DNA from: a virus
Length of the DNA: 64,000 nt
IMG/VR virus record: IMGVR_UViG_3300011114_000356
Coordinates: 2,275-66,274 of that record
Strand: one strand, 5' to 3'
Part shown: piece after piece, positions 6,398 to 51,130 of the stretch
Numbering within the stretch: position 1 is the first letter of the stretch
Layout: each line of letters begins with the position of its first letter
Translations under genes and position numbers: made by a program
The notes under the pieces: model-generated
The model's input: only the letters and a program-made list of their open reading frames with translations
What the model was told of the DNA's origin: nothing
Database searches by the model: none

Positions 6398-6427
6398 AGG
6401 TATTTAATAGGAATATCTAAAAAGGTC

Positions 6428-6456
6428 ATTATAAAGGACAATTTTACATAATACAA
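6428..6456 (-). promoter_or_regulatory. sigma70 promoter for terS operon
   Basis: TTGTAT-17-TATAAT on the minus strand. Confidence 0.65.
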
Positions 6457-6657
6457 GAAAAAGGACGCACAGAATCGAACCATAACGAACGATCTCATAT
6501 CGGTTAAGGGTAAGGTATAGGCATTAATTGATCTCTTTACTATATCGCTTCTTATACTATCTATAAGGAAAAGGGCATATCTTGGGCTGTTTGGCTTCGC
6601 CTCTTGTGGCTATTCTTTAGGGGTGTTTTATCAGTCGTAAATAATTGCTTAAATAGT

Positions 6658-6686
6658 TTGCATTCTATTAAAAGCTTCGGCATAAT
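6658..6686 (+). promoter_or_regulatory. sigma70 early promoter
   Basis: TTGCAT (6658) -17- CATAAT (6681), followed by hairpin 6695-6715 and RBS GAAAGGG. Confidence 0.7.
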
Positions 6687-6736
6687 CTCTTTTAAGAGGT
6701 TAATTGTTAATCTCTATTAATTGAAAGGGCTTAACC

Positions 6737-6907
6737 ATGAGTAAATATGAAAAGGCTTTAAAGGTAAAAAATAAGTTATGGCTTAATCTTAAAACTAAGG
6801 ATAACAAGTCTAGTTATGAATCTATCCTAATTAATAGGCTTTATAGGTTAGATGTCTTATGTAATAAATTAGCATTTTCTAATTTAAAAGGGGTTAATCA
6901 TGGATAA
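6737..6907 (+). CDS. early hypothetical protein (56 aa, not in ORF track)
   Basis: RBS GAAAGGG; MSKYEKALKVKNKLW.. Confidence 0.55.
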   Translation: MSKYEKALKVKNKLWLNLKTKDNKSSYESILINRLYRLDVLCNKLAFSNLKGVNHG

Positions 6908-7055: not shown

Positions 7056-7222
7056 TGAACTATAACGTTATAGCTAGGGGTATTCAATTCTGCCTTATGT
7101 CAATCATTGGACTAATTTGCATCGGCTTTCTTGGACAAGCTTTAATTGGCGGTCTTTGCTTCGCTGTGGCTTTTCTTTATCTTTGGTTAGCATTTGAGGA
7201 GGCGGAACAAAATGAAGTCTAG
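7055..7222 (+). CDS. early small membrane protein (55 aa, not in ORF track)
   Basis: RBS AAGGAGG; two hydrophobic helices. Confidence 0.6.
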   Translation: MNYNVIARGIQFCLMSIIGLICIGFLGQALIGGLCFAVAFLYLWLAFEEAEQNEV

Positions 7223-7312
7223 AAAATACACTAAAGACGGCTTTCTTTTTATGGTCGTTATATATTTAGCGGTTATCTTTTTAACTTATTTATTATGCAT
7301 AGGGGCTTAATC

Positions 7313-8329: not shown

Positions 8330-8530
8330 ATGAAATACTTTGTATTTGACAATGAGGGAGGCAATTTCTGCGAGTGGGGAAGAGATGAACCACGAACAAG
8401 GGCGGAAATTATCGACTATTTTAGGGAACTCAATCAAGATGAATCATGCGAACCTTATCCGTTAAAGCTTTATAGTCTCAAAATGATAATGGATATATGG
8501 AATGTTGATATTATTCCTATCAAGCCGTAG
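8330..8530 (+). CDS. early hypothetical protein
   Basis: RBS TGAGGGG. Confidence 0.65.
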   Translation: MKYFVFDNEGGNFCEWGRDEPRTRAEIIDYFRELNQDESCEPYPLKLYSLKMIMDIWNVDIIPIKP

Positions 8531-15698: not shown

Positions 15699-16362
15699 TA
15701 AAACTTATCCCCCAACTCTTGAAATATTTTCTCATATGCTTTTGGTGTGAAGTCTTGTTTGTTAAATTCAAACAAAGTCTTTTTACCATTAGCGTGTTTA
15801 ATATAACCCTTAACTAAAACATTTTCAACTATGATTGTTTTCTTTGCATCTACCATGTTGCTTTTCTACCTTCTATTTTATAAATTGCCATGGCTCTGTT
15901 TAATACTTTAGCGTCTCTAGCATATCTTGTATCTGATTGATCTTGATCTTGGCAACGCTTAGCGTGAAGTTTAATCCTCCACTGCTTTCTAATTGTATAA
16001 GCTTTTGTAGCCATCATTCACCTACCGTTCTGTATGAGATACCAAGATAGATATTTCTTACATTGTGTTTATTAAGATTGAATTCTTTAGCTACCTTTGG
16101 AATAGGCATAGTCTTCAATGCTTTCTTGATAGCAATGACTTGTTCTGTCGTTAAATACTTTTTGTGATACACAGATCCTCCCATTTCATTTCCTTTCGTT
16201 AAGCGTTAATAATTTTTAATAACTCATCACAATCTTCTCTTACTAGTTTTGCTAAATCCTGTGCCTCTTTATTTATGCCACGATCTTTATAAACATGAAT
16301 ACAACCTTCAATCATTTCATTTAATTTTTTAATAGCTTGTTCTTTATTCATTTGATTTCCTT

Positions 16363-16536
16363 TCAAAATGGTGCTTCTTCATAGTCGTTAAAATTAAACA
16401 CTTCTTTTGGTGCTTTCGGTAACTCTACCACATCTATATCAGGATGGGTATCTTTATACCATTTGGCTTCTCGTTTAGACCAACGATATTTTCTAATGAT
16501 ATCTCCGTCATCTACTACTGCGTGTGTAAAATCCAT
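16363..16536 (-). CDS. hypothetical protein (57 aa)
   Basis: RBS GAAAGGAAGG before MDFTHAV; ends YEEAPF. Confidence 0.65.
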   Translation of the reverse strand: MDFTHAVVDDGDIIRKYRWSKREAKWYKDTHPDIDVVELPKAPKEVFNFNDYEEAPF

Positions 16537-16544
16537 ATCCTTCC

Positions 16545-16875
16545 TTTCTATAATTTTAGACAATAGGACACCTAGGGTGGTAGGAGCCACCATTGATCCA
16601 TACAGAGTAAAGCTAACACACTCTATACCAATCCTACACAGAGTTAATGATCTTCAGCGTGCATAGTAGGTAGTACCACCCCAGTCCTATGCAGACACGG
16701 TAGTCGCCATTTAACGCTACCCAGTAGAGCCTGCGGGTGTAGACAGGATACTATGTTTTCTTCCAAGCCACCCATGTAGGTGCACTGATATCGTTTGGAG
16801 TACGAGTTGGAGATAGTAAAAGGAAAGGACAACCACAAGCGTAGTTATTCTAGTCCCCTTAATATCTCTCCCTAT
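16545..16875 (-). ncRNA. candidate long structured 5' leader / ncRNA (or origin)
   Basis: GC-enriched non-coding stretch with serial stems downstream of a sigma70 promoter. Confidence 0.55.
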
Positions 16876-16880
16876 TTATA

Positions 16881-16909
16881 AATTTACACCTAATGAAAAT
16901 AAAAAGCAA
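16881..16909 (-). promoter_or_regulatory. sigma70 promoter of replication operon
   Basis: TTGCTT-17-TAAATT on the minus strand. Confidence 0.6.
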
Positions 16910-16914
16910 GTGGT

Positions 16915-16953
16915 AGAAAAGAAAAACCCCTAGGTGATCAGCCTAAGGGTTTT
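16915..16953 (-). terminator. intrinsic terminator of the sRNA
   Basis: AAAACCCTTAGG-CTGATCA-CCTAGGGGTTTTTCTTTT. Confidence 0.8.
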
Positions 16954-17032
16954 AAAGTGGTTCATGAGGGGTGAACCGAGACTTTACCGAGAGAGATAGT
17001 AAAGGGACGACTGTGAGGAAAGGGACTCACAT
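16915..17032 (-). ncRNA. small RNA with three anti-Shine-Dalgarno stem-loops and intrinsic terminator
   Basis: Loops UCCCUUUC, AUCUCUCUC, CCCCUCA; terminator with U-tract; G-U pairs only on minus strand; upstream TTGACA promoter. Confidence 0.75.
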
Positions 17033-17037
17033 TCGAA

Positions 17038-17066
17038 ATATTATATGAATATTATATAAATGTCAA
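17038..17066 (-). promoter_or_regulatory. sigma70 promoter of the sRNA
   Basis: TTGACA-17-TAATAT; predicted +1 at ~17032, the foot of hairpin 1. Confidence 0.7.
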
Positions 17067-17316
17067 CATATAGTTAAAAGTTATATAGAAAACACTATAT
17101 ATTGTGGTTTTGTTATATAGAAATTTGTCAATATATTACTTTTTTGCGTTTAATTACAAATAAAAAGACTAATTTGTAAGATTAAGTATATGATTTAATT
17201 AGAAAATGAGGCATTTTTGCCTTGAACTAGATGTAAAGTATACTTTGCAGGCAAAACTCATGATTATATGGATGATTTTGTATAGCAAAAAGAGCAGAAT
17301 ATGCAATACAAACTAC

Positions 17317-17358
17317 TTTGTGTAGCATATATTACACACAAATATGTTTGTGTAGCAT
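17317..17358. repeat. TTTGTGTAGCAT direct repeat upstream of pqqA
   Basis: 17317-17328 and 17347-17358 (30-bp period) with inverted ACACAAA at 17336-17342. Confidence 0.7.
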
Positions 17359-17392
17359 TTTTTAGAACAATTGATCTACAAAGGAGAACATT

Positions 17393-17464
17393 ATGTGGAC
17401 AAAACCAGCAGCAACAGAAATGAGATTTGGCTTCGAAGTGACTATGTACGTAATGAACAAGTAA
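17393..17464 (+). CDS. pqqA: PQQ precursor peptide PqqA (23 aa, not in ORF track)
   Basis: MWTKPAATEMRFGFEVTMYVMNK with W-x-x-P leader and E-x-x-x-Y core; RBS AAGGAGA. Confidence 0.95.
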   Translation: MWTKPAATEMRFGFEVTMYVMNK

Positions 17465-17508
17465 TCGTAAGTTTGCACTTAGTGTAACTTTGTGATTAGT
17501 AGTATAAT

Positions 17509-17530
17509 AGGGGACTTATGTCCCCTTTTA
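17509..17530 (+). terminator. intrinsic terminator overlapping next RBS/start codon
   Basis: AGGGGAC-TTAT-GTCCCCT-TTTT. Confidence 0.7.
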
Positions 17531-18132
17531 TACGTTCTAAGCTTGATATAAACACTGATGAGATAGCTGATAAAGTCTTTAGACTTCAGAAGTATTGGAT
17601 ATCTAGATCAGATGACTTTGATTTCTATACCTTAGGTAGATGTGCATACCTAGATGGTAAGACCCATGCTTACAAAGAAGAGATTAAGATTCTTAACCCT
17701 ATCATGCGTGAAAGCTTTGGCGACACATATGATATCATTATTGATTACTTATCAGATCAATTCAAAGAGCCCATAAAGCTTAACTACACTTTAGCCCACC
17801 CTTCATTCCATATCTTTGTTTCAAGTCCAATACTACTTACCCATGCGGGTGTATGGCACCAAGACTATCCACATATTACTTTAGGGCTAGGGAGCAACAG
17901 TCCATTTACGTTTACTGTAGCGATTAAATTACCAACTGGAGGGGGAGGTATTGACTATATAGAAAATGGCCTACAAAGGTACTTACCGTACGAAATAGGG
18001 GGTATTATAGCTCACGATGGGGAAGTGCTGCACAGGATATCTAGCTTAAAAAATTATGTGCCTAATGAATATAGGATTAGCTTACAGGGACATTTAATAC
18101 GGATTGATGGCGTATTGAATATGTTTTGGTAA
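17518..18132 (+). CDS. 2OG-Fe(II) oxygenase superfamily protein
   Basis: HxD (WHQD), GGGID, distal H (VLHRI), RxS (YRISL). Confidence 0.8.
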   Translation: MSPFIRSKLDINTDEIADKVFRLQKYWISRSDDFDFYTLGRCAYLDGKTHAYKEEIKILNPIMRESFGDTYDIIIDYLSDQFKEPIKLNYTLAHPSFHIFVSSPILLTHAGVWHQDYPHITLGLGSNSPFTFTVAIKLPTGGGGIDYIENGLQRYLPYEIGGIIAHDGEVLHRISSLKNYVPNEYRISLQGHLIRIDGVLNMFW

Positions 18133-48583: not shown

Positions 48584-49735
48584 TTATGCTGCTGTATATG
48601 TCCCTGATGAAGTAAATCTAATAATTGTATTAGAACCTGATGTTGTAATTGCAGGTGAACCTGTAGTTATACCTGTGTATGCTGTAGTTGGTATTGATAA
48701 AATAACTACGCCTGAACCTCCCGCTGCACCAATTCCATCAAATGTGCCTCCACCTCCACCACCGCCACCTGTATTAACAGTTCCAGCAACTGCCGCTGCA
48801 CTACCAGTACCTCCAGTACCCCCACCTCCAGTACCACCAGTACCACCAGTTGAACCATTAGTACATCCACCTCCACCGCCAGCATATGTAACAGATGAAC
48901 CTGTAATAGAAGAAGCCGTACCATTTCCGCCATTACCAGCAGTATTTTGAGGTGAACCAGATCCACCAGCTGCACTAGCTCCACCACCACCAGCACCATA
49001 ACCATTACTGTTGGAAGAAATTGCTGATGGATTACCACCTGCATTACCTTGTCCTGAAGTGCCTGCTCCACCACTTTGAGTTGATGTTGTACCAATAGAG
49101 TTTCTCCATGCACCGCCACCGCCTCCAGATCCTCCAGAAGCGCCAGATGATCCTATTGCAGATCCTCCTGATGATTGTGCATAACCACCACCACCACCAC
49201 CAATTGCTGTTTGTGTTGAAAACCCTGAACCACTTAATACAGAATTTGATCCTGCATTACCAACTTGAGAGCCTGATGTTACACCTCCACCTGCTCCTAC
49301 AGTAGCTGTATAAACAGTACTAGAACCCCCTGATAATGAAACAGATCCAGTTAATAGTCCACCTGCACCGCCACCACCGCCAAGTGATGAACCTCCACCA
49401 CCTCCACCAGCAACAACTAAATAAGTCATTGTATAAGTATTACCAGCCGTACCAGCATTAACCCAACCACCAACAGGATTATAAGCTTCTATCTGTCCAG
49501 TCGTTGTATTATATCCAATCGTTCCAGTAGGAGGAGAAGAAGGCCTTGTTGCAGTCGTCCAAGTACCATTAATAACTTCCCAAGCCGAGCCATTATAAAC
49601 TTCTAATGTTGTAAATGTTGAGTTATATCCCATCTGCCCTGTAATAGGCGAAGTTGGACGAGTAGCGGTTGTCCATGTAGATATGGACGTTCCTCCGTTA
49701 GAACCTAGTGCAGATAGATTTACAGCGTATGTCAT
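48584..49735 (-). CDS. glycine-rich tail adhesin
   Basis: YLVVAGGGGGG..GSGVVILS; paralog of 50108-51130. Confidence 0.75.
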   Translation of the reverse strand: MTYAVNLSALGSNGGTSISTWTTATRPTSPITGQMGYNSTFTTLEVYNGSAWEVINGTWTTATRPSSPPTGTIGYNTTTGQIEAYNPVGGWVNAGTAGNTYTMTYLVVAGGGGGGSSLGGGGGAGGLLTGSVSLSGGSSTVYTATVGAGGGVTSGSQVGNAGSNSVLSGSGFSTQTAIGGGGGGYAQSSGGSAIGSSGASGGSGGGGGAWRNSIGTTSTQSGGAGTSGQGNAGGNPSAISSNSNGYGAGGGGASAAGGSGSPQNTAGNGGNGTASSITGSSVTYAGGGGGCTNGSTGGTGGTGGGGTGGTGSAAAVAGTVNTGGGGGGGGTFDGIGAAGGSGVVILSIPTTAYTGITTGSPAITTSGSNTIIRFTSSGTYTAA

Positions 49736-49738
49736 GTA

Positions 49739-50089
49739 TTATCCTAAATTAACTTCTTTCCAATTAATTAACTCTTCATCCCATAAATATCTTTTACCAT
49801 CATCTGGCATAGGCACTGGTGCTTCCCATAACCAAGTTGACTCATTGAGAACCCAAGAGTCATAAGGTTTAGGGGCATAGAATACATCGTTAGTTGCGTC
49901 ATATGTATAACCAATTCCTGCGTAGTTACCTCTTAAAGGTCTACCTTCTGGATGTTGATTACCATGCGTATTATAGCTTGTTTGAATCCAAGTACCAGGA
50001 CTTGAATCTACGAATGTATCAAAAAATTCTGGTTCAGCCACGATGACCTGTGTAACTTTACCGTCTACTACTTTTGCAAAATGTGACAT
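49739..50089 (-). CDS. partner protein of glycine-rich adhesin
   Basis: MSHFAKV..WIQTSYN..RGNYAGIGY..WEAPVPMP. Confidence 0.75.
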   Translation of the reverse strand: MSHFAKVVDGKVTQVIVAEPEFFDTFVDSSPGTWIQTSYNTHGNQHPEGRPLRGNYAGIGYTYDATNDVFYAPKPYDSWVLNESTWLWEAPVPMPDDGKRYLWDEELINWKEVNLG

Positions 50090-50107
50090 TGTTGTCTCCT
50101 TTAAAAA

Positions 50108-51130
50108 TTAAGCTGTATATGTGCCTGAGGCAGTAAATCTAATTATAGTATTTGATCCAGATGTTGTAATTGTAGGGCTTCCTGTTGTAGTTCCAGTATA
50201 GTTTGCGGTTGGTACGGATAAAATTACTACACCAGAACCACCAGCTCCACCTGTTTGAGTAGCTGCACTATTAGCAGATGCACCACCTCCACCTCCACCT
50301 GTGTTTGCGGTTCCAGCACTTCCGTTGCTATTTGGAGCATTTGAATTACCACCGCCTCCAGTACCACCAGAACCTGGAGTTCCTGGAATATAAATACCAC
50401 CACCACCTCCGCCAGCATATGTGACTGATGATCCCGTAATAGAAGAAGCTGTACCATTTCCACCATTACCTCCAACAGAGCTTGTACCTGTGCCTCCAAC
50501 CGCACTTGCTCCACCGCCACCTCCTCCACCGCCAGCAGATGCTCCACTTGTTCCTACTCCACCTGCATTCCCTTGACCAGATGTTCCTGAACCTCCTAAA
50601 TAAATAGTTCCGCCAACACCGCCACCACCTGACCCGCCAGATAAACCATTACCAATTACTGAGCCTTCTTTACCACCACCGCCTCCACCAATTGAGGTTA
50701 TAGTAGTTAATCCTGACCCAGCAATAGAAGAATTTGACCCAGAAGTTCCTTGTCCTCCAGAAACTCCACTACCTCCAGCACCTACAGTTGCAGTATATGT
50801 TACCCCGACAGTAAAAGTAGCTGTACCAGTTAATAATCCACCAGCTCCACCGCCACCCGCTCCAGTAGAGTTGCCAGACATACCACCGCCCGCACCTCCT
50901 CCTGCTACAGATAAATAAGTAACTGAATATACATTTCCAGAAGTACCAGCATTAGCCCATATTGCAGATGTAGCGTTATAAACTTCAATTTGACCTGTCG
51001 TTGTATTATAACCAATCTGTCCAGTCACAGGGCTTGACGGGCGTGTACCTGTAGTCCAAGTAGCAATAGCTAACCCTGTAGAACTATCTAGTGTACTTGC
51101 TCCTGCGGTTCCTGTAAGTATGAGTGCCAT
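50108..51130 (-). CDS. glycine-rich tail adhesin
   Basis: YLSVAGGGAGG..IIRFTASGTYTA. Confidence 0.75.
   Translation of the reverse strand: MALILTGTAGASTLDSSTGLAIATWTTGTRPSSPVTGQIGYNTTTGQIEVYNATSAIWANAGTSGNVYSVTYLSVAGGGAGGGMSGNSTGAGGGGAGGLLTGTATFTVGVTYTATVGAGGSGVSGGQGTSGSNSSIAGSGLTTITSIGGGGGGKEGSVIGNGLSGGSGGGGVGGTIYLGGSGTSGQGNAGGVGTSGASAGGGGGGGGASAVGGTGTSSVGGNGGNGTASSITGSSVTYAGGGGGGIYIPGTPGSGGTGGGGNSNAPNSNGSAGTANTGGGGGGASANSAATQTGGAGGSGVVILSVPTANYTGTTTGSPTITTSGSNTIIRFTASGTYTA

Follow-up and report, generated by a model that had tools for sequence, protein, structure and literature searches.

A 64,000-nucleotide (nt) stretch of DNA from an uncultivated freshwater phage, referred to as the window throughout, carries on its minus strand a candidate small RNA (sRNA) of ~115 nt, followed on the same strand by a long structured leader and a helicase-primase operon. 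The window comes from the 66,274-base IMG/VR virus record IMGVR_UViG_3300011114_000356, which is rated complete, and has a G+C content of ~37%. An earlier note on this DNA had read the sRNA as a regulator whose C/U-rich loops recognize the Shine-Dalgarno (SD) sequences of many early and middle genes of the phage. Our analysis of the locus points instead to the neighboring leader as the principal partner of the sRNA. The features involved, including the first open reading frame (ORF) behind the leader, are as follows.

17038–17066, minus strand: sRNA promoter, with the −35 hexamer TTGACA (17066–17061), a 17-nt spacer and the −10 hexamer TAATAT (17043–17038); predicted start near 17031.
17013–17030, minus strand: hairpin 1 (RNAfold), stem GUGAG/CUCAC, loop UCCCUUUC (17025–17018).
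16989–17008, minus strand: antisense segment GUCCCUUUACUAUCUCUCUC, consisting of the linker and the 5′ arm and loop of hairpin 2; pairs with leader 16872–16853.
16982–17004, minus strand: hairpin 2 (RNAfold), stem CUUUACU/GGUAAAG, loop AUCUCUCUC (16997–16989).
16959–16977, minus strand: hairpin 3 (RNAfold), stem GGUUCA/UGAACC, loop CCCCUCA (16971–16965).
16917–16953, minus strand: intrinsic terminator, a stem-loop (16953–16923) with a 12-bp stem that includes a U-G pair and a 7-nt loop, then UUUUUCUUUU; the T-run extends to 16917.
16881–16909, minus strand: P2, the promoter-like site of the leader, TTGCTT (16909–16904), a 17-nt spacer and TAAATT (16886–16881); the start is a prediction.
16853–16872, minus strand: 5′ strand of the leader and target of the sRNA, GGGAGAGAUAUUAAGGGGAC, G/A-rich and SD-like; it doubles as the 5′ strand of the hairpin at the leader's 5′ end.
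16809–16830, minus strand: 3′ strand of the leader's 5′ hairpin, GUCCUUUCCUUUUACUAUCUCC, C/U-rich and similar to the antisense segment of the sRNA.
16571–16804, minus strand: leader core, from CGUACUCCAAACG to CCACCCUAGG, a conserved, co-varying structured RNA of ~230–250 nt.
16363–16548, minus strand: first early ORF, with SD GAAAGGA (16548–16542), AUG at 16536 and 57 amino acids (MDFTHAVV...), placed by alignment with relatives.

As judged from its sequence, the sRNA is an independent, conserved, structured small RNA with C/U-rich loops. Its promoter matches 10 of the 12 consensus positions and is among the best 7 of 59 promoter-like sites found between 6000 and 25500, and its terminator heads the list that a simple consensus scan returned for the same interval. 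The −35 hexamer reads TTGACA in 22 of the 23 unique relatives and TTGACT in the other, with a T/A-rich hexamer 17 nt downstream in all of them. RNAfold returned the architecture listed above with a minimum free energy of −36.9 kcal/mol (z = −5.45), and none of 200 dinucleotide-shuffled sequences was as stable. The strand is fixed as minus by U-G pairs in hairpin 3 and in the terminator. The promoter, the three hairpins with C/U-rich loops and the terminator reported in the earlier note are thus all present, and its minus-strand call stands, since the U-G pair of the terminator fits that strand only. There is no conserved ORF in the sRNA, as an AUG in hairpin 3 of the window was found by eye to be absent from relatives. 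Of the 535 loop nucleotides in 23 family members, 504 (94%) are C or U, whereas the RNA bodies as a whole contain 70% of these two bases; loops 1 and 3 retain a CCCU-type motif in all clades.

Relatives of the sRNA were collected by several routes. The exact 18-mer of hairpin 1 occurs in 15 IMG/VR viral-contig stretches, and the whole unit of promoter, hairpins and terminator in 14; the match in stretch L015, which does not carry the unit, is due to chance. A pattern search based on the terminator recovered a divergent family member, L019, along with two unrelated terminators (L017 and L018). For a sample that does not depend on the sRNA, we searched with the conserved motif of the downstream leader, which gave 51 stretches. 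A covariance model built from two relatives (L007 and L016) and applied to 436 kb of sequence (the window and 41 loci) matched the window at 17030–16917 with 85.6 bits (E ~1e-18). It found exactly one match with E ≤0.01 in each of 23 low-GC loci, window included, and none at that threshold in the 19 higher-GC loci searched; we discarded a weak match (13.5 bits, E 0.85) at 7149–7282 (+), which falls within coding sequence. Alignment of 9 sRNAs with MAFFT followed by RNAalifold missed hairpin 2 through misalignment, and alignments made with the covariance model were used instead. In the resulting alignment of 22 distinct rows, 95.9% of the cells are paired, versus 81.3% after shuffling and 36–56% in slid controls. 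Compensatory changes on both sides affect 23 of the 29 pairs (hairpin 1, 5/5; hairpin 2, 7/7; hairpin 3, 4/5; terminator, 7/12), and 0 of 500 shuffles reached the observed value of any of these measures. Hairpin 3, for example, reads GGUGU-CCCUC-GCACC or GGGCUC-UACCCUC-GGAGCCC in relatives.

Rfam (release 15) gave no match at gathering score in the 64-kb window or in 14 related loci (121 kb), and the phage antisense and immunity RNA families such as c4 and IsrK, insofar as that release holds them, were likewise not found at this score. With an E limit of 10 over 16300–17500, the models overlapping the sRNA were the trpB motif (20.5 bits, cut-off 59) and SIB_RNA (18.9 bits, cut-off 56), and the plus strand gave cow-rumen-4 (19.1 bits, cut-off 48.5), all of which is sub-threshold noise. 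A blastn search of 16600–17200 in distant mode against 50,697 phage records returned no match, and a literature search found no paper describing the sRNA or its adjoining leader. A catalogue of 8,495 candidate structured RNAs of 29–151 nt from IMG/VR (PMC10690425) may already list the sRNA motif without a function.

The leader begins ~45 nt past the sRNA terminator, and the two are direct neighbors with a common orientation in all 23 unique loci. Between them lies P2, which scores below the 9-of-12 cut of our consensus promoter scan; its pattern, TTGNNN-16/17-TANNNT, is kept between terminator and leader in all 23 unique relatives, with a variable spacer. The untranslated leader extends ~335 nt up to the SD GAAAGGA. 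An alternative start of the first ORF at 16593 was rejected because the alignment of relatives places it at 16536. The operon continues with small ORFs, a helicase (14674–13196) and a Toprim primase (13199–12366). The motif of the leader core is present in 51 viral-contig stretches of differing G+C (L002–L056); it ends in CACCCU(A/U)GG and contains a long-range GGGGUG/CACCC helix. Conservation and covariation of the core extend to all 51 loci; compensatory changes are seen in 15 of its 43 predicted pairs, and single-base insertions and deletions exclude a coding function. The core has no match in Rfam, and a search of one genome each of 185,579 bacterial species gave 0 matches, hence no prophage copy and no clue to the host. 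In the collected stretches it often stands ahead of replication genes, and in some loci beside terminase, HNH or capsid-like genes.

Within the sRNA, the antisense segment at 17008–16989 is complementary to the first 20 nt of the leader (16872–16853), with 17 Watson-Crick pairs, 2 G-U pairs and 1 mismatch (19 paired). A 10-bp match between loop 2 and GGGAGAGATA (16872–16863, the start of the leader) had been pointed out earlier; it proves to be one end of this longer duplex, and the complementarity of the sRNA to a G/A-rich, SD-like sequence is borne out. Scanning the window with plain RNAduplex gave results distorted by long interior loops and by G-rich coding regions for glycine repeats, and a score of the helix type was used in its place. 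In local alignments of this type over 6,394 windows on both strands, the leader site gave the best non-self helix (score 40; next, 37). Cofolding of sRNA and leader yielded −70.7 kcal/mol, versus −33.6 plus −25.9 kcal/mol for the two RNAs alone, which favors the heteroduplex by ~11 kcal/mol.

The pairing is conserved while the sequences that form it change. A near-perfect helix of 12–29 nt between the same part of the sRNA and the first 20–40 nt after P2 is present in 22 of 23 unique loci, L012 being the exception. Over the 23 loci, helix scores average 33.3 for sRNA and leader of the same locus versus 22.2 for crossed combinations, and 0 of 20000 permutations reach the former value. The sRNA of the same locus is the best of 23 for 16 of the 23 leader targets, and duplex energies average −30.2 kcal/mol for own versus −23.5 kcal/mol for crossed pairs. 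When the long-range sRNA-leader helix was encoded in a model together with hairpin 3 and the terminator (20 distinct sequences), 88.8% of the cells in its 26 pairs were paired, and 23 of the 26 pairs had changed on both sides; for the whole structure, 92.2% were paired, versus 76.8% after shuffling and 41–58% in slid controls. In L037, L031 and L039 the pairing sequences are unrelated to those of the window and are not G/A-rich, and they are matched all the same: in L037, CAUAUCUAACCU pairs with AGGUUAGAUAUG, and the sequences in L031 and L039 are different from these. Each duplex contains 0–5 G-U pairs, which argues for RNA pairing on the minus strand. Because the sRNA lies on the same strand as the leader, ~130 nt upstream, and is only imperfectly complementary to it, the match must be maintained by selection.

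The sRNA-leader helix is in competition with hairpin 2 and with the 5′ hairpin of the leader itself; each of the three helices covaries. For the leader hairpin, which was counted in the 19 rows left after removal of the five antisense rows, 89.7% of the cells in 27 pairs are paired, versus 67.8% after shuffling and 49–55% in slid controls, and 24 of the 27 pairs have changed on both sides. The capacity of the same nucleotides to enter three mutually exclusive helices has thus been preserved, as is characteristic of a switch. We modeled the consequence for translation by masking nt 1–28 of the leader as a stand-in for bound sRNA. The predicted probability that the SD of the first ORF is unpaired fell from 0.46 to 0.21, with values of 0.43–0.49 for six control masks placed elsewhere in the leader, and a decrease was obtained in 12 of 17 leaders. 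Under this mask the SD is predicted to pair with the liberated C/U-rich strand at 16830–16809, which would act as an internal anti-SD.

Based on these results, we favor a reading in which the sRNA is a trans-acting antisense RNA of ~115 nt with its own sigma-70-type promoter and terminator, whose main target is the 5′ end of the helicase-primase leader; we put its probability at about 55%. The sRNA would be made from this promoter and end at its own terminator, both transcript ends being predicted from the positions of these signals, and the leader would be transcribed separately from P2. First contact would occur between the exposed CUCUCUC loop of hairpin 2 and the 5′-terminal GAGAGA of the leader, and pairing would then spread through the 5′ arm of hairpin 2 and the linker to give a duplex of ~20 bp (12–29 nt in relatives). 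This duplex, which may be a substrate for RNase III, would open hairpin 2 as well as the 5′ hairpin of the leader, leaving the C/U-rich 3′ strand of the latter free to pair with the GAAAGGA SD of the first ORF. Translation of the operon would be turned down in this way, and in the folding model that of its first gene would probably be shut off by the sRNA. Because the direction of the effect comes from thermodynamic modeling of long RNAs, we treat repression as inferred.

Several observations weigh against this reading. Sequestration of the SD was predicted from thermodynamic folding of 350-nt RNAs, and the effect is absent in 5 of the 17 leaders (L005, L010, L011, L037 and L052). Pairing with the 5′ end of the leader does not explain why hairpin 1 is so strictly conserved, nor the CCCU motifs of loops 1 and 3. 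By plain duplex energy the leader site (−30.3 kcal/mol) ranks only ninth among the non-self sites of the window, the sites above it being loop-rich duplexes with G-rich coding repeats. L012 is mismatched, with a score of 21 for its own pair, and its leader fits an L011-type sRNA better (32). The pair counts for the sRNA, the sRNA-leader helix and the leader hairpin were made on alignments fitted to the structures under test, which favors the structure, and covariation is blind to the difference between pairing in trans and pairing in cis within a read-through transcript. Seven public sequencing runs contain part of the stretch (shares 0.05–0.26); the four that were examined consist of contigs, from which neither ends nor strand can be read and which thus speak neither for nor against transcription, and three of them (X1–X3) are probably DNA. 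The metatranscriptome X5 has a 144-letter assembled contig over 16901–17032, derived from a relative, and one contig that runs from the sRNA into a relative's leader; it also holds DNA-like flanking pieces over coding and upstream intergenic sequence.

The earlier note had proposed that a multi-loop anti-SD sRNA acts on many ribosome-binding sites (RBSs), either early and middle ones of the phage (GAAAGGG, TGAGGGG and GAGAGA types) or those of the host, as a temporal switch or silencer, with the leader as one target of many. We regard this as unlikely. The matches on which it was built are real: GAAAGGG, complementary to loop 1, precedes the starts at 6737 (+), 10093 (+), 19477 (−) and 24858 (−), and TGAGGGG, complementary to loop 3, that at 8330 (+). 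They extend over only 5–8 nt, however, as expected of any C/U-rich loop. Among 112 ORFs called in the window by a simple script (65 early and 47 late), GAAAGG is found at 12/65 early versus 1/47 late RBSs (p 0.007), but GGAGG shows the identical split. The three loops bind early translation initiation regions better than late ones (Mann-Whitney p 0.0005–0.003); the anti-SD tail of 16S ribosomal RNA does so too (p 0.007), and once its energy is subtracted the preference of the loops is gone (p 0.63 and 0.99). Within this genome, discrimination by the loops is no greater than general SD strength, and the distinction between early and late genes by RBS dialect finds no support in the form proposed. 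Whether loops and RBSs co-vary between phages, a comparison that the note had also suggested, has a positive answer at the level of clades. Counted by gene family, GAAAGG RBSs number 21/122 in the clade with UCCCUUUC as loop 1 versus 0/57 in the sister clade of CCCUCUCU type (p 0.00026), and GAGAG RBSs show the opposite trend (9/122 versus 10/57, p 0.065); the corresponding counts per ORF are 31/273 versus 1/106 for GAAAGG and 13/273 versus 22/106 for GAGAG. This comparison involves two independent lineages only and is thus a hint, and the sister-clade loops, aligned by hand, fit the common GGAGAGA RBS by only ~5 bp. Also in line with RBS recognition, the first ORF after the leader has GAAAGGA in 10 of the 17 leaders scored, L037 combines the loop CCUCCUUUCU with the SD AGGAGG, the loops are 94% C/U with a CCCU-type motif in loops 1 and 3 of all clades, and hairpin 1 is invariant in the window clade although it lies outside the duplex with the leader. 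Against these points, the only extended, co-varying complementarity is that to the leader. It appears that the RBS-dialect silencer idea is weak and that a general anti-SD role is unproven; a direct anti-SD role of loops 1 and 3 is a possibility of secondary rank, which could coexist with antisense control of the leader and, in the case of loop 1, would also account for the invariance of hairpin 1.

Two other explanations concern the relation between sRNA and leader. The sRNA could be the terminated 5′ part of a longer leader, a cis attenuator or dual-isoform RNA in which the helix forms within the read-through molecule, as in the long isoform of IsrK or at a regulated terminator. The constant adjacency of sRNA and leader on one strand (23/23 unique loci) would follow naturally from such an arrangement, for which IsrK provides a precedent and to which the covariation is equally suited; higher-GC relatives, moreover, have no separate sRNA or second promoter, and in them a terminator-like hairpin abuts the core. 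We nonetheless think it quite improbable, given that P2, with conserved hexamers and a variable spacer, intervenes between terminator and leader in 23/23 loci, that the terminator is strong and conserved (12-bp stem and U-run), and that the complementary site, being downstream of the terminator, cannot prevent termination during transcription. A protein or ribosome decoy, in which the pyrimidine-rich loops titrate a host factor such as ribosomal protein S1 or an RNA chaperone and the leader match is a by-product of common descent from a C/U-rich strand, is very hard to reconcile with the data and has little likelihood. It would suit the 94% pyrimidine content of the loops, the invariance of the stem and loop of hairpin 1 across phages that differ elsewhere, and the similarity of the antisense segment to the leader's own 3′ strand. 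Common descent alone, however, would not keep 23 of 26 intermolecular pairs through two-sided changes, it leaves the matched pairs of unrelated sequence in L037, L031 and L039 unexplained, and no protein partner is named by the data.

If the leader is the target of the sRNA, as we favor, the distribution of variation across the module suggests a further role. The most variable part of the sRNA is hairpin 2: in the window clade, mean pairwise identity is 0.69 in the variable segment and 0.71 over leader nt 1–28, versus 1.00 for hairpin 1 (100% identity across the 14 loci compared), 0.89 for hairpin 3 and the terminator, and 0.82 for the leader core. Grouping of the 23 leader 5′ ends at 80% identity gives 15 groups; with L012 as the one exception, every group has a matching sRNA of its own. 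Hypervariable, matched pairing sequences inside conserved flanks are the pattern of a specificity determinant of the immunity or incompatibility kind. No integrase or repressor family was matched among the 29 window proteins scanned, a subset of the ORFs. We tentatively suggest, as a somewhat doubtful extension, that the sRNA and leader form a hypervariable lock-and-key module (at least 15 groups in 23 loci) in probably virulent phages, a three-strand gate on the replication operon that shuts down co-infecting phages of the same type. The three strands of such a gate would be the SD-like 5′ strand, the internal anti-SD strand and the real SD, 300 nt away across a structured RNA of ~250 nt. If this is true, action in trans would amount to an RNA-only immunity or incompatibility system outside lysogeny, and recombinants such as L012 would carry the key of one type and the lock of another. 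In L012 (sRNA at 246–363, leader from 406), the sRNA is of the type found in L003, L004 and L010, while the leader pairs best with an L011-type sRNA; by its sequence this locus looks like a recombinant between specificity types.

To our knowledge, targets have been established for only a handful of small RNAs encoded by phages, and the known cases are mostly from prophages of E. coli and Salmonella. In phages P1 and P7, the immI region encodes c4, an antisense RNA that acts in trans; it lies ahead of the operon that it targets and is read from the same strand, and its loops and target sites differ in a matched way between heteroimmune phages. c4 blocks the icd RBS directly and is part of the immunity system of a temperate phage. 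The sRNA would resemble c4 as a same-strand, upstream regulator, with 15 groups of matched pairs; among the 29 window proteins scanned there was no integrase or repressor match, and no prophage copy of the leader motif was found. In the IS10 RNA-OUT/RNA-IN system, the loop of the regulator hairpin first pairs with the 5′ end of the target, and the helix then extends by zippering; in ColE1 a multi-hairpin regulator, RNA I, acts on the 5′ part of a long structured RNA, RNA II, with variable sequences that define incompatibility groups. The start of pairing from loop to 5′ end and the use of variable sequences as specificity groups would be common to these systems and to ours; unlike their regulators, the phage sRNA shares the strand of its target, is encoded ~130 nt ahead of it and matches it imperfectly. 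Bacterial sRNAs of the cuckoo/CcsR, AbcR and RsaE types contain several C/U-rich motifs. With these and with LhrC the phage sRNA shares several CCCU/UCCC-type motifs in loops (UCCCUUUC, AUCUCUCUC and CCCCUCA) that are able to pair with purine-rich RBSs. Those RNAs are chromosomal regulators of many unlinked mRNAs, whereas for the phage sRNA we found, within the window, no specific RBS targeting in excess of what the 16S anti-SD shows; covariation was seen with one target only, the adjacent leader, and Rfam gave no match. Several UCCC motifs are described for Listeria LhrC (PMC4132741).

Close parallels also come from two other phage systems described in PMC4825925. The CI RNA of P4 pairs with flanking sites (seqA and seqC) and thereby controls the P4 replication genes (PMC4825925). 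As proposed for our locus, a small structured RNA stands at the head of the operon that it controls and is antisense to sites in the same leader region, and the operon encodes replication (primase-helicase) functions. CI is processed out of the leader transcript and causes premature termination of transcription (PMC4825925), whereas the phage sRNA has its own promoter and terminator and a single target, located where a leader with a promoter of its own begins; what is predicted here is an effect on the structure of the 335-nt leader and on SD accessibility, and the two RNAs have no sequence or Rfam similarity. The short IsrK RNA of Gifsy-1 acts by strand displacement on the mRNA of its own operon (PMC4825925). 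Like the phage sRNA in our reading, it is a short RNA closed by a terminator and lies where a phage operon begins; it binds one strand of a downstream helix, frees the other and changes the accessibility of an RBS. IsrK acts on a longer isoform of its own transcript, produced by read-through, with activation as the result (PMC4825925); at the present locus, a second promoter is conserved and folding predicts repression, and again there is no sequence similarity. Taken together, the preferred reading of the sRNA is a trans-acting antisense regulator of the P4 CI, IsrK and c4 kind, with the neighboring leader of the replication operon as its target.

The target of this sRNA is unusually well defined for one deduced from sequence data alone, in that three mutually exclusive helices covary across ~20 natural variants, and these variants constitute a ready-made set of compensatory mutants. 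If the antisense model holds, it would extend the logic of P4 CI, c4 and IsrK to phages without a sign of lysogeny and would provide a natural library of orthogonal RNA lock-and-key pairs. It would also give the first functional handle on the leader core, a large structured phage RNA that is present in 51 viral contigs and lies outside RNA family databases.

The higher-GC relatives (L020–L033, L040, L042, L047, L049, L050 and L055) have the leader core without a separate sRNA. The core there often follows a cro-like helix-turn-helix gene. In front of it are a promoter, a small hairpin and a long hairpin that resembles a terminator; the latter has a U-run and directly adjoins the core, with no second promoter. 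By eye, the long hairpin contains a site complementary to the loop of the small one, and loop and site change together; examples of such loop/site pairs are UGGAACG/CGUUCCA, UUGGACA/UGUCCAA and GUGAGAAA/UUUCUCAC. This arrangement looks like a cis version of the sRNA-leader switch.

Just upstream of the −35 hexamer of the sRNA, the sequence TTCTATATAAC occurs as two direct repeats (minus strand, 17122–17112 and 17090–17080), and the same motif is found upstream of the −35 in relatives; it is possibly a regulator site or an UP-like element. A 30-nt element, TTAAACGCAAAAAAGTAATATATTGACAAA (17124–17153, minus strand), lies ~60 nt upstream of the −35, is near-identical in the divergent L019 clade and coincides with a peak in the depth of relatives' contigs. 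Farther upstream, TGCTA(C/T)ACAAA is present in three spaced, operator-like copies (17357–17347, 17327–17317 and 17287–17277; together 17277–17357, minus strand), between the sRNA and a divergent gene of 204 amino acids (17518–18132, plus strand). The product of this gene matches PHROG 24927, a family of unknown function, and no Pfam family.

With the helicase and a tail-fibre-like protein as tblastn queries, all matches were below 60% identity and came from uncultured freshwater Caudoviricetes and from phages of Paracoccus, Methylophilales, Synechococcus and others. Structural genes at 48584–51130 (minus strand) contain long GGU/GGA glycine-repeat stretches, which give spurious strong duplex predictions with any C/U-rich RNA and are a trap for target prediction in this genome. 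Finally, a 340-nt intergenic region at 6398–6736 (plus strand) precedes a rightward operon whose first RBS is GAAAGGG. It holds CTCTTTACTATATCGC, which is similar to CCTTTACTATCTCTC of the sRNA, followed by a G/C-rich, hairpin-like sequence, and may be another regulatory RNA.

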